Of a DNA stretch of 64,000 bases, positions 36,001 through 45,000 are shown one piece after another. Source of the stretch: Escherichia coli (GTDB taxonomy: Bacteria; Pseudomonadota; Gammaproteobacteria; Enterobacterales; Enterobacteriaceae); the NCBI RefSeq assembly GCF_003991155.1, contig NZ_CP031293.1, one strand, 5' to 3'. The position numbers were made by a program. Position 1 is the stretch's first letter; every line of letters starts with the position of its first letter.

Positions 36001-39000
36001 CGCCTTGTTTATCGGAGTGCCTTGCCAGAAATTGACTGACCAGAATTCCCATAATAGCGCTACCGGTGAAGAAAAAACCTACCATTATAGGACGGGCTTT
36101 CAGTTCATCTGCGAGGAATATACTTAGGGTGGGAGTCTGGAGAGCGCCCGCAATACCCGTCAGAAAGGCGACAAGTAAAAATGCCGCGGCAGTGAGATCA
36201 AGTATTTTTGATGGAGTAGTAGCCGTTTTTTGCATTCTTCTGAATCACCGGGCGACAAAATATAACTGAGTTACAAATAAGTACCAGTCGAATGAGTATT
36301 GTATTAAGAATTTTTGAGTATCGCTGATACAACCAGAAAGCAATGCTAGCGCAATATTATAGGGCCAGCAATTGAGATTATTAGCAAAAGCATGTTAAGA
36401 GTTAATCACCGAATTTATATATTAATTATAGTAAGACAATGAGCTATTTTTGATAGTAAAAATAAAACAAATTTATTTGATATATTAAATGAACAAATTA
36501 ATCTTGATGGCAGTCTGATTATTGGTGAAGTTTACAGGTCAGTTTTTTTCGCCAGCGGTTAAAGGAATAGAATCGTCGTATAAAAAAAGGGTGTTCTGGG
36601 GCGTGTAAAACAACATCTTCACCTTAATGGCGATACAGTTGGCTGAGAGTCAGCAGGGGGGCAAATCACCTGCAAATAAACACGGCGCATGCTGGCGCGA
36701 ATATCGCGGATGCGTTCGAGGACAGAAGAACCGACAGGCGGATTCTTCAGCCGCTCATCGTCCATCACAAAACCTTTGACCAGGTATTCCTGAAGCCGAT
36801 TGAATATTGAGCAGTAGAAAATATCTGGATTGACAGTATTACAAGGGATTGGAGAACGTCAGAAGAGGCATTTTGGCGGAAGATCACAGGAGTCGAATAT
36901 GAGAGTTAATGTTTTGATTTTAAATGATTAATACGTGTTGGATAAATGAGTAACCCCCATAAGAACCCCCAAATGACTTTGCGTAAGGGAATGAGGCTAA
37001 AATACACAATCGAATCAATTCTTAGAGCTTTATTATGAAGGTAACACTCCCGGATAGTGTTTCGCAATAATCTCATTAAGTCTGTCAACCAGTTCTGGTT
37101 TCCTGAACGTGATGTGCGCGGAGCCCTTCTTAAAGTATCTGATGCTGAACATCTCATCTTCATAGTCCTCTTTACCCTGAACTGAGTGGATGTGATCATC
37201 CAGACGAATAGTGATGTTTTCCCGGTTGTCGGGGATCGGTTTGCCGCTGAACAGGTGTAGCATTCTTTCCAGATCGGCAAGTCGATCTGCCTGTTGCCCG
37301 GTGATAAGATGAAACCCCCACCGGTCCCACCTCACCAGGTTGTTGACGATAATTTTACTGCCAAATTTACAGGGCGAGTTGGTTTTGTAATCCCAGCCCA
37401 GTCCTCTGAAAACGTTGATCACCCCTCGCTCAAACACCTCATCCTTATTCTGGTGCAGTTGTTCAAATGTGCTCAGAATGTTCGCTTCATTGATTTTCGG
37501 AAAATTATCATATTCCAGTGACCGGTACCATGTATCACGGGCCTGTGCATCCATTAAGGAAAGCATCCCTGAACGTTGCATCAAGTTTCGCCAGATTTCA
37601 CGGTCAAGGTTCCGGGTGATGGCTTTCATTGCGGTTTCCGGTTTTTCCATCAGCCAGCAACCGCAGCGAAAATCCTGTTTCATCGCCCAGTCCAGGGCGG
37701 TTTTACCTCCAATACTTTCTGTCAGTACTGAGATTTCTGCCAGTTGCCGGATAAGTGTGTCGATTTGCAGCAGCGCACTCTTTCGTACAGCCAGAATGTG
37801 GCGGATACTGGTTGAGCAGATAACGTCCGTATGCCCGTTGACCAGTTCCGGGCGGGAGATTGTGATATCTGACATCATCGTTTTTCCTTTTGGTTTATAA
37901 ACGAAAACGCCAGCCCTGTTCAGGCTGGCGTCAGTGGAATGAAGTCTGGTGAGTGAGATTCACCGGTTCTGGTGCAGAAGCTGCAGTTGGCGCAGGGTAT
38001 GGATATCCTCCCTCGCCTGTTCAATACAGGACAACAGTGCTGCCGAATCCGTTTTATCCTCATTGTTGTCAAAGATAATTCCGGATTCGCAGTCGATATT
38101 GTCCTGCAGCCACGCAATCAGAATATCCAGTGCGGTTTCCGTGGTTAATGATTTCATGTTGCTCCTGGTTACCAGTTGAAAGTGGGTAAACCCGGCAGGC
38201 ATTCAGCGCTGGCATCCAGATGAATGAGACTGACGCCATAACGTCGGGTAAGTGTGATAACCAGACGACGGAACGTTTTTGACAGCCCCAGGCGTTTAAG
38301 CCGCAGAACCGGATATGACCACGCATCGGTACGTAACAGATATCCGCTACCTGTGAAATGAATCCATTCTGATTCACCGAAGTCACTGGTCTGGTGTGAC
38401 AGCGAGTACAGCCAGGCGTTGTCCGTTTCCGTGATATGTGCGGTACTGCAGCGTATACCGGTCAGGGCAGCAAATGGTGGCATGCAGTCTGTTGAGGCCC
38501 GGTCAGATGCATCAACAACACGAAGGGAGTGGCCATTATCACAGACCACGTTAATCAGTTCAGCGAGATTAACACCATCGACGTCAACGACAATGCGTCC
38601 CATGTTCAGTGCCTGCACGTTAATGCTGTCGGCTTCCAGCGTCAGGGCCAGTTTCATTGTTTCGCCTCCGGATGTTTCCCCTGGGTAATGTTATTTACCG
38701 TTCTGTAGTTATCGCGGGTCATCAGGCCGGTTGCCCTGCGAGCCCGGAGAATATCAATACTGTTTATTAACTGAGAGCGGGTACAGGCGCTGAATCCCGG
38801 CTGGTCGGTACGTATCAGTGCGTATTTTTCAACGAGAAAGTTCACCGCATCACACAGTGAAATGCCAGCTTCAATATGCTGCTCAATCACACGTTCATCG
38901 GCGAACGGTGTGTCATTCAGTGTGAGGCCATAGTGCTGGTCCAGCAACCGGGACAGCAGTGTCTGCCAGATGGTGACGGGAGACGGGCAGCGAGATACCT

Positions 39001-42000: not shown

Positions 42001-45000
42001 TCTCCCGGAGAAGACGCGGCCTGATGGATGAAATGAAGACGTTTATTGCCTGAGAATTCCCTCACTGGCGAGGTACGAATTTAGCTGTTTTCCGGCGTCA
42101 GACTCAAAATTCCAGCACCGCCAGCGTAGTTGCCCTTCGGCATTGCGGATAACCAGCAGGAAATGCGTTCCATGGTCATCTTCAATAAGCACATTGCGGT
42201 AAGCTGTTGTGGCAGCCATTGCCTGTTTGCGTGAGAAAGGGCCTTCGGGCAATAAAACAGGGTGACAGTCCGACATACCGGCTATTTTCCGATAAATTCA
42301 ACGCTGGCACTGGTGGCATTACCGTCAGCACCAACCGTGACGGTCACTTTGTCGTACGCACGGTCTTCAGGATTGAATACTTCAAACTCAACCTTATTGC
42401 CTTTTACTTCGTAAGAGCCAAAATCAGCGGTTTCTGTTGTTTCCTCGTCATATTCCCGGGCGTATGCCTGCCGGGCAGCCTGCAGGACGGAGTCTTTATT
42501 AATAGTGGTCGTCTGTTTCGGGGAAAAACCGGCAAGTGATGTGACAAATTTCGGACAGACCTTCAGCATATCACCGCGGGTGAATTCCATTCGTACACCA
42601 AATGCCTGTAAAACGGACACATCACGCTCTGCTATGGAGTGAACGGCTTTTTTGACCATTTCCGGCGCCTGTCCGATTTCCACCTCAACAGCCCTGAATC
42701 CCGTCTGCTGATTACACATTTGTGATGTGGGGATCAGGTTACCGTTAATACTGATACGGCTGCCCAGGAGCGTCTGTACGCCATTCGGGCATCCCTGCAT
42801 CAGGCCGGTAATACCAATCGTGCCATTTTTCAGCATTACCAGCGCCTGACCATCTTCCGTCATGGTCTGACACCAGCCGTTTTTGACAGCCCAGTTGCCG
42901 GCGGAGGCGGAGAATGATGCCACAGTGAACAGCAGGGGAAAAAGAGCTCTGGTATTCATGACTGACCTCTGAAATGAACGTACGGTGTTATTGATAATGA
43001 TGGAAGGTATGCAGTGACTGTTCAGGGAATGACGTAGCCGTATATTTAGTTTTCTGTTCAACATATTGTCTCCATACCTGTCGGGACGGCTTTGGCAGGC
43101 CGGCGATCACAGGTTAAAGGTGTTGATAAGTTTATGGATGAAAGAGAAATGTGGCAGGGCGGAGATAAAACGCTCTTCAGCGACCAGACTGTGGATGTGG
43201 CCTCTCCGTTCAAACCGTTCTGATGTCAGGCTGACTGATTTGATATCTGCCAGAGGAAAGACCTGCAGTTTTCCCTTCTGTAACGCGATCAGATACCAGC
43301 TACCGCTGTAATAAATGAGCCGGCAGGGCTCCAGTGACGGATACCATCGCTCAGTCATCAGAGAGATGTGGATACACTGTCTTATTGCCAGGATGAGTTG
43401 CGAGAAACACTCGGGGAACGTTGCAGTGATATTCGGCGCCGGTAGCCAGATAAGGCAGGGAGAGGGCTCCTGGTTGTCGGTAAGACAGGTTATCAGTCGT
43501 CCGTTCCGGAGCGGAAGTATCCGTGCGATCCCGGTATTCTGTATAAAAGAAAGCATTTCAGGGATCGCACCTGGGCTGCTCTGTCGTCTGAGGCTGTACC
43601 TGCCATTTCTGTACTCTAAATCCAGGTGAACCAGACGCTGATGAAAATCGCGCTGTAAAGTACGTTCTGTAACGCCAAATTCATCTGACAGTGTTTTTAG
43701 TGACAGAGATTCTCCGGCCATCAGTCGGCTGATAATGAGTGATAAGCGAACCGCCAGGCGATCATGCCGGGAACGATTATCAGACATAGATGTGCACTCC
43801 GTAAGAAAACATCTTTTATTTCATGATGTTATTATGCCTCATGGTGTTGAAAGGATGTGTCGTATCTGAATAATCAGGAATAAAATGCAGCAGAAAAAAT
43901 ATTCCTTTAATTATCTGATTTTTAATGATGATTTCATAAAAAGAAGAATACTCATTAATCCAGCGACACATCCTGTCGGCGTGAGTGTGTCAGAACAGAC
44001 GATCCCACAGTGTTTCCAGCAGGCGGATAATGCGGTCCCGGGCTTTACGCAGAAGCTGTAACATCCAGACCGGAAAAGTGAACCGGGCAACGGCGTCGTC
44101 AAAACTTTTCCCGATGGCGTCACCAAAAGTCTGTTGTGCGTGTTTCTGGGCCTGTTCAGAGCGGTTTTCCCCCCGGATATGTGAATAAACCGCACTGGTT
44201 GCCTGCGGTGGCAGGGCGTGGATCATCAGCGACACAAACGCCGGAAGATTCCAGCCGACAGGCGCAGCAACGGGGAGTACCGGAAATGATGACGGGAACA
44301 GGGTTGCCACCCTGGCTGTAACAGTTGCCAGTGAGAGTTCCTGGTGACGGGATGGGCATTTTTCTGTGGCATTCCATTCTTCAGCAGGAAACACGCGATC
44401 GGCATGGCTGAGAACAAACAGAAAACGCGAGGGATCTGCACCTTCATTCAGTAAAAACTGATGCATGGCAATATCGGCAGCATACGCACGTTCATCAGCC
44501 CGCAGGATCCAGATAATCAGATCCAGTTCCGGCAGTAACTGACGGTAAAGCTCCCGGTATTCCTGATCATGCTGCGGTGTCTCACCAATGCCGGGCAGAT
44601 CGACCAGCGTCATTCTGCGTTCACCAATCTGCAGGGTGAGGCGATGAGCCTGGCGGGTGCAGCCGTTCAGGGGATGCGTGGCGCAGATACGGGACTGAAA
44701 AATGGCATTACACAGACTGCTTTTGCCGGAGCCGGATTTACCCATAATGCCAATCACGGGCTCGTAATGAATAACACCGTGGAGATGTTCAAGGATTTTC
44801 TGGCGAATTTCTTCAGGAAGAAACGTCAGATATGATTTCACTTGCGCGGAGAGGGAAGAATTGCTGAATGGCATACCGGTATCCTGTTGATTTCACTGAA
44901 CCGGATCACACTAATCCGGTTTATCATTCAGGTAATATGGGTGTGAAAATTTTTCCATTGACGGGAAGAAGAGTATGGCTAAAAACAAAGGTATCTGTCG

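Follow-up and report, generated by a model that had tools for sequence, protein, structure and literature searches.

A CP4-like gene module beside setC as the probable attR-proximal backbone of a genomic island in selC of Escherichia coli

Introduction

Genomic islands inserted at selC, the gene for tRNA-Sec, include SHI-2, the island of strain BEN2908 and GIselC17584/1. For GIselC17584/1, the att core and both arm motifs presented below have been reported at the two ends of the island, all of these sequences having first been described, according to the same paper, for the BEN2908 island, and its integrase-proximal ~2.9 kb are shared with SHI-2 (PMC6174562); SHI-2 is compared here solely through that statement. 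Related elements in E. coli K-12 are CP4-44 (yeeP … yeeS-yeeT-cbeA-cbtA-yeeW), in which no integrase is annotated and which carries flu and yeeR, and CP4-57 (ssrA-intA-alpA-yfjI-yfjJ … yfjP-yfjQ-yfjR … yfjX-yfjY-ypjJ-yfjZ-ypjF). Here, we analyze a stretch of 64,000 nucleotides of an E. coli genome (contig NZ_CP031293.1), hereafter called the window, in which a minus-strand run of genes of this kind lies next to setC. In an original prediction, positions 36600-44874 were regarded as the remnant of a CP4-type element that looked truncated or rearranged. We conclude that positions 36898-44874 very probably represent the conserved backbone at the attR end of a genomic island of ~44.3 kb, a member of the P4-integrase ('CP4-like') family that is integrated in the 3' end of selC. 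The feature is an ordinary one that has already been described, and it is not novel.

Results

The island ends in a direct repeat of selC

A search for att-like repeats at the border revealed a direct repeat of 25 bp, TTCGACTCCTGTGATCTTCCGCCAA, which is an exact copy of the 3' end of selC (Table 1). This is the sole match within the window even if up to 3 mismatches are allowed, and 0 matches are expected by chance. The identical 25 bp are found at the selC 3' end of strain 2016C-3878 (positions 30104-30128 of the compared segment, L002). Homology to K-12 begins exactly at this repeat: from 36897 toward setC, the minus strand is colinear with the K-12 selC 3' end, the yicT (rhuM-like) pseudogene and the region upstream of setC, the selC-setC spacer being 98.3% identical in the two genomes, and the sequence above 36897 is island-specific in the same alignment. 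The island was predicted to start at 36600, but its actual end is at 36897/36898; positions 36600-36872 are ancestral core DNA, since they are colinear with the K-12 selC-setC spacer. Likewise, the island does lie beside setC (35051-36235, minus strand, with yicL, nlpA and yicS on its left), but it does not abut this gene, as a spacer of 637 bp separates the two.

To see how widespread this border is, a 501-bp probe across the attR junction was compared with 5426 complete E. coli genomes. The same junction of rhuM, attR and the DUF4942 gene was present in 692 of them (13%). In most other genomes, the core-side homology stops precisely at 36897, and tRNA-Sec is annotated there. The rhuM-like fragment (K-12 yicT) between selC and setC is common to nearly all E. 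coli genomes. rhuM is also a gene of Salmonella SPI-3, which is likewise inserted at selC, and for this reason the fragment may have been left behind by a far more ancient island at this tRNA gene.

The integrase and selC lie beyond the window in near-identical genomes

As originally predicted, no tRNA was found within the window, and no tyrosine recombinase is annotated in the window-equivalent stretch of an identical genome in RefSeq. Positions 16337-64000 are 99.994% identical to strain 2016C-3878 over 47,665 bp. In that strain, the sequence past the window end contains tnaCAB, debris of the insertion sequences (IS) IS66 and IS110, and 3-oxo-tetronate kinase/aldolase genes, followed by a tyrosine integrase of 393 amino acids (aa) directly beside tRNA-Sec. 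The unit from repeat to repeat measures 44,349 bp in 2016C-3878, which puts the selC end at ~81.2 kb in window terms, i.e. ~17.2 kb beyond position 64000. It is most likely that the source genome, too, has the integrase gene and a tRNA-Sec that ends in TTCGACTCCTGTGATCTTCCGCCA at this distance. Among the genomes compared, 21 matched the module at ≥98.9%, and every one of them had selC and the same integrase at the same distance; it is in the flanking DNA of 2016C-3878 and of these near-identical genomes that the cognate integrase was seen. The integrase is intact, contains the domains Arm-DNA-bind_3, Phage_int_M and Phage_integrase, and has 39% identity to IntA of CP4-57. It is present at selC in 1519 genomes, compared to the 692 genomes with the present attR junction.

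A paired motif, TTTGGGGGTWCTTWWGGGGGT, occurs in one copy just inside each end of the island. At the attR end it is represented by the tandem GGGGGT motif TTTGGGGGTTCTTATGGGGGT (Table 1), which has a single copy within the window. Its partner, TTTGGGGGTACTTTAGGGGGT, is present in a single copy in the 2016C-3878 segment, between selC and the integrase gene, and has the same orientation as TTTGGGGGTTCTTATGGGGGT. Given the Arm-DNA-bind_3 domain of the integrase, the tandem motif is a candidate site at which this protein may bind.

Thirteen intact genes form a CP4-like module

The thirteen minus-strand genes at 37033-44874 follow the order in which they had been predicted, and all are intact in the RefSeq annotation of a 100%-identical genome. 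Pfam families were assigned at or above gathering scores to 11 of the 13. The presumed CP4-type affinity was borne out when the module proteins were compared to K-12 by tblastn, the identities to CP4-44 amounting to 98.7% (RadC-like protein, to YeeS), 94.5% (DUF987 protein), 90.7% (CbeA) and 87.9% (CbtA). Relative to the paralogs in CP4-57 and CP4-6, identities were 70-82% for the DUF932, antirestriction and RadC-like proteins, and 60-67% for the toxin-antitoxin pair.

The antitoxin gene precedes the toxin gene on the same strand with a 46-bp spacer, as is characteristic of type IV CbtA/CbeA pairs. In systems of this type, the toxin causes growth arrest with lemon-shaped cells, and the antitoxin relieves this effect. 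The antitoxin is 88-91% identical to K-12 CbeA, and it matches the YeeU structures 2INW (E 1e-77) and 2H28 (E 1e-73). In the toxin, residue F65 is conserved, and at position 15 it shares a Cys with YkfI and YpjF, versus Arg in K-12 CbtA. F65 is needed for FtsZ binding in CbtA, YkfI and YpjF; R15C in K-12 CbtA abolishes MreB binding, whereas YpjF with its natural C15 still binds MreB (PMC5624674). The prediction of an intact CbtA/CbeA pair thus holds at the level of the sequence, both proteins being of full length and F65 being conserved.

Where merely 'small ORFs' (open reading frames) had been noted downstream of the toxin, one codes for a DUF5983 protein of 162 aa, with an overlap of 4 bp between its start and the end of the toxin gene. 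This protein is 63% identical to YeeW over residues 5-64 only, K-12 YeeW being a truncated homolog. The 65-aa ORF that follows had no Pfam or NCBIfam match; over 30 aa, it shares 77% identity with a fragment that follows yeeW in CP4-44. A terminator-like hairpin (37932-37906) is located after this ORF. For the DUF4942 gene, an old 'methylase' label was rejected: only the DUF4942 domain was detected, and the methyltransferase is a separate C-terminal addition in relatives of ~460 aa. A confident AlphaFold2 (AF2) model of the DUF4942 protein (pLDDT 89) had no convincing fold match in the PDB, and none to the methyltransferase fold.

Upstream of the antitoxin gene, the RadC-like protein is 77.9% identical to YfjY, which is now annotated in K-12 as lfgB, 'CP4-57 prophage protease'; LfgB was reported to cleave the antitoxin MqsA (PMC10846083). 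The antirestriction protein belongs to the ArdB/KlcA family, with PDB matches to ArdB (2WJ9, E 1.2e-101) and KlcA (2KMG, E 5.5e-20). In-vivo activity against type I systems has been reported for this family (PMC2836571). No solved relative of the DUF932 protein was found by sequence. A strong terminator-like hairpin of 13 pairs is present at 42022-41993, after the DUF905 gene. The conserved 225-aa protein had been described as 'lipoprotein-like', but its signal is of the Sec type and lacks a lipobox cysteine; it had no Pfam or NCBIfam family and no homolog in the K-12 CP4 elements. An island of Klebsiella michiganensis has a homolog with 65.5% identity in the corresponding place. The regulator matched the PADLOC WYL model (E 2.6e-18), and a PADLOC scan of the module and the adjacent 407-aa gene, here called gene X, returned this generic WYL match and weak GTPase matches, and no known defense system. 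An Rfam scan of the whole window gave nothing in the module, its only match being a group II intron fragment at 61 kb (see below). The promoter scan was uninformative, because promoter-like sites were fewer than in shuffled sequences; the accompanying terminator scan yielded the two strong hairpins mentioned above.

The backbone continues beyond the GTPase gene

The conserved backbone continues past 44874 to about 58.6 kb, broken by an IS3 element and a cargo insert of 7.6 kb (Table 1). Gene X, which is divergent from the GTPase gene, had no Pfam, NCBIfam or PADLOC family. We found 16 homologs, and in Klebsiella michiganensis and Citrobacter homologs with 33-34% identity occupy the same place. 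Its AF2 model, built on an alignment of 8 sequences, was too poor to use (pLDDT 54). The islands of Klebsiella and Citrobacter also have the gene order GTPase, divergent X, AlpA and YfjJ, and the AlpA homolog is 60-72% identical to the alpA genes located beside the X homolog in these islands. We considered the plus-strand position of the AlpA and YfjJ genes as an inversion, and dropped this idea since the same divergent arrangement is found in Klebsiella and Citrobacter. Along the same lines, the prediction had called the minus-strand run the 3' half of a CP4-like element; the genes of the '5' half' are also present on the other strand, and this is normal for the backbone. The cargo insert contains genes for an acyltransferase, a pseudouridine kinase with a glycosidase, a nucleoside transporter, a sugar kinase and a second YfjJ-like protein (56763-57329).

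Other observations concern the remainder of the window. The genes tnaB and tnaA are located at 61399-64000 (minus strand) as cargo of the selC island, with tnaC just past the window in the identical genome. A match to the Rfam model of group II introns (RF00029; 50.1 bits, E 7.5e-7) lies at 61049-61135 (plus strand) amid fragments of bgl-PTS, melA and IS66, and no intact reverse-transcriptase ORF was noticed near it. At 1045-4058 (plus strand), downstream of an ilvN-like segment (556-795), two ORFs of 431 and 500 aa in a stretch with a GC content of 0.34 had no Pfam or PADLOC family; this stretch looks like an unrelated small insertion.

Table 1. Features of the island and its border in the window. 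Coordinates are window positions; E denotes the E-value of the match.
Feature	Coordinates	Strand	Basis and remarks
Ancestral selC-setC spacer	36236..36872		Core DNA; colinear with K-12
yicT/rhuM pseudogene fragment	~36634-36795	-	K-12 yicT pseudogene; RefSeq partial RhuM family protein
attR	36873..36897	-	Exact 25-bp direct repeat of selC (tRNA-Sec) 3' end, TTCGACTCCTGTGATCTTCCGCCAA; true island boundary
Tandem GGGGGT motif, TTTGGGGGTTCTTATGGGGGT	36953..36973	-	In the 135 bp that separate DUF4942 from attR; candidate arm-type site for integrase binding
DUF4942 protein, 280 aa	37033..37875	-	Pfam DUF4942; last island gene before attR
65-aa ORF, RefSeq name DUF957	37960..38157	-	RefSeq annotation of identical genome
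DUF5983 protein, 162 aa	38169..38657	-	Pfam DUF5983_N and DUF5983
CbtA-family toxin, 125 aa, full length	38654..39031	-	Pfam CbtA_toxin, E 1.5e-61, profile 1-112 of 112
CbeA/YeeU-family antitoxin, 124 aa, GTG start	39078..39452	-	Pfam CbeA_antitoxin, E 6.1e-54, 100/101 profile positions
DUF987 protein (YeeT homolog)	39615..39836	-	Pfam DUF987, E 2.1e-38; 94.5% identical to YeeT
RadC-like JAB-domain protein (YeeS/YfjY homolog)	39899..40375	-	Pfam RadC, E 5.4e-45
ArdB/KlcA-type antirestriction protein, 159 aa	40390..40869	-	Pfam Antirestrict PF03230, E 2.4e-37
DUF932 protein (YfjQ/YafZ homolog)	41135..41953	-	Pfam DUF932, E 1.6e-49; ~74.5% identical to YfjQ and YafZ
DUF905 protein (YkfF homolog)	42043..42276	-	Pfam DUF905, E 9.4e-27; 59% identical to YkfF
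Conserved 225-aa protein	42282..42959	-	Sec-type signal (…FSASA|GNW), from sequence
HTH_11 and WYL transcriptional regulator (YfjR homolog)	43107..43787	-	Pfam; 43% identical to YfjR (CP4-57)
YeeP/YfjP/YkfA-type GTPase, 294 aa	43990..44874	-	Pfam MMR_HSR1, E 4.7e-15; 33-35% identical to YfjP and YkfA
Gene X, 407 aa	44975..46198	+	AT-rich (GC ~0.33); divergent from GTPase gene; N-terminal CxxxxC…CxxH motif
IS3 insertion, simple	47370..48627	+	3-bp target duplication GTG; interrupts backbone
Backbone stretch	48628-49763		Colinear with comparison sequence L010; includes YfjJ-like gene
YagK/YfjJ-family (inovirus Gp2-like) gene	48912..49643	+	Pfam YagK_YfjJ_C, E 6.3e-36; REP_ORF2-G2P, E 5.5e-9
Cargo insert, 7.6 kb	49764..57343		Absent from comparison sequence L010
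Backbone stretch, hypothetical gene and AlpA homolog	57344-58594		Colinear with comparison sequence L010
AlpA-family protein, 77 aa	58220..58453	+	Pfam Phage_AlpA, E 2e-10; candidate excisionase (recombination directionality factor)

Discussion

The present island shares three traits with the CP4-like elements. Pfam and tblastn identified the conserved block (GTPase … DUF932/antirestriction/RadC/DUF987/toxin-antitoxin) as in CP4-44, CP4-57 and CP4-6, the insertion is at a tRNA 3' end with tRNA-derived direct repeats, and a small helix-turn-helix protein of the AlpA type is encoded at 58220-58453. The attR end of the island is complete, although the island as a whole is mosaic and in decay, with IS3, the cargo insert and pseudogenes.

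The absence of a tRNA from the window and of an annotated integrase from its equivalent, together with the IS3, IS66 and IS110 fragments and several pseudogenes in the island, would fit a CP4-type remnant, either truncated or rearranged, that was left stranded beside setC after the loss of its integrase, target tRNA and att sites. We regard this as extremely unlikely, given that an exact attR is present, that the arm motif on the attR side is paired with one in the integrase-proximal flank, that the integrase and selC are found 17 kb past the window end in 21/21 near-identical genomes, and that 13/13 module genes are intact. The module is even more complete than that of CP4-44, because CP4-44 has only fragments of, or no match for, several of its genes. 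The idea of a truncated element arose from where the window ends and from overlooking the 25-bp repeat: that an integrase and a tRNA are missing from a fixed window does not amount to truncation, and the decisive feature is the short tRNA-derived repeat at the border. The term 'rearranged' is appropriate in a weaker sense, as the island is a mosaic with IS3, the 7.6 kb insert and several pseudogenes.

This mosaic content, with two YfjJ-like genes (48912-49643 and 56763-57329) and the 7.6 kb insert, might also be explained by tandem accretion. In this case, the 8 kb module would be what an earlier selC island left behind, and the integrase, not being cognate to the module, would have come to selC later with another island unrelated to the first. 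In addition, the ends of such islands can be shuffled, since 1519 genomes have the integrase at selC and 692 have the attR junction. Tandem accretion is nonetheless very unlikely, because no internal or degenerate selC-derived repeat was found with up to 3 mismatches in the window, nor in the rest of the island. Moreover, the arm motif is confined to the two extreme ends, and the module is adjoined by X, YfjJ and AlpA in different genera. Finally, the element might be a cryptic P4-like satellite prophage instead of a non-phage genomic island. The P4-family integrase and AlpA would fit this view, and the K-12 relatives are indeed annotated as cryptic prophages; yet the annotation of the 44 kb includes no P4 genes for a primase-helicase, capsid size or late control, and the cargo consists of metabolic genes (tna, psu and otn), which leaves this explanation with a negligible probability.

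For an island integrated at selC, the following series of events can be envisaged. The integrase would recombine attP with selC to give the two 25-bp repeats, and the AlpA homolog might be the excisionase of the island, by analogy with AlpA of CP4-57, for which this role is known. The module would supply functions for establishment and maintenance: the ArdB protein may blunt type I restriction of incoming island DNA, and CbtA is predicted to block FtsZ and probably MreB and to be countered by CbeA, which could help the cell to retain the island or to respond to stress. A protease function is possible for the RadC-like JAB protein, and the WYL-HTH protein may act as a regulator. Several points weigh against these views. 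The integrase and selC ends are outside the window, their presence in the source genome being deduced from near-identical genomes, and excision, toxicity and antirestriction by the present copy are predicted from its sequence. To our knowledge, a role of type IV toxin-antitoxin pairs in retention has not been established. The C15 residue of the toxin makes the MreB arm of the mechanism uncertain, but it is not decisive because YpjF, which has C15 as well, binds MreB. Lastly, the island may no longer be mobile in view of its many pseudogenes and IS fragments.

We also considered, and judge unlikely, that the backbone shared across genera is a self-contained mobilization unit rather than passive baggage. 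The parts of such a unit would be the GTPase-DUF4942 block, read toward attR, together with the divergent zinc-ribbon-like gene X, AlpA and the YfjJ/Gp2-like protein. If this were true, the YfjJ-like protein, which matches a rolling-circle initiator family, could nick and replicate or mobilize the excised circle. In the circular form, the block with the antirestriction and toxin-antitoxin genes would be transcribed across attP in the direction of the integrase gene and act like the 'leading region' of a plasmid, and both gene X and DUF4942, which have no recognizable fold relative, would take part. A literature search for a 'leading-region' role of DUF932, antirestriction and RadC proteins yielded nothing useful, and a paper of 2024 on a pheV island does not discuss the present module.

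The significance of our analysis lies mainly in the correct annotation of what is the standard end of a common selC island, and the correct borders (attR at 36873-36897, backbone to ~58.6 kb) will be useful for comparisons of selC islands or tests of excision. The backbone genes for DUF4942, DUF932, the 225-aa secreted protein and the 407-aa protein are not peculiar to the present locus. Among the K-12 elements, CP4-44 has the nearest relatives of the RadC, DUF987, antitoxin and toxin genes (88-99% aa identity) in the same order. In contrast, only fragments of the DUF5983 and DUF957 genes matched in CP4-44 by tblastn, and no match was obtained for DUF4942, DUF932 or the antirestriction protein. 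CP4-57 resembles the present island in its overall layout, with an RNA gene and an integrase at one end and a GTPase-to-toxin module toward the other, and its module proteins are 35-78% identical to those described here. The two elements differ in their targets (ssrA in CP4-57, selC here) and in the gene order of the module. Furthermore, AlpA and YfjJ are on the opposite strand in the present island and follow a 407-aa gene for which nothing equivalent is annotated in CP4-57, and CP4-57 ends at the toxin, without a DUF5983, DUF957 or DUF4942 gene. The present element is a selC island of the same kind as SHI-2, the BEN2908 island (AY857617) and GIselC17584/1. No shiA, aerobactin, hemolysin or adhesin genes were seen in its annotation, and it differs from these three islands in its cargo, which comprises tnaCAB as well as genes for pseudouridine catabolism and 3-oxo-tetronate kinase/aldolase.

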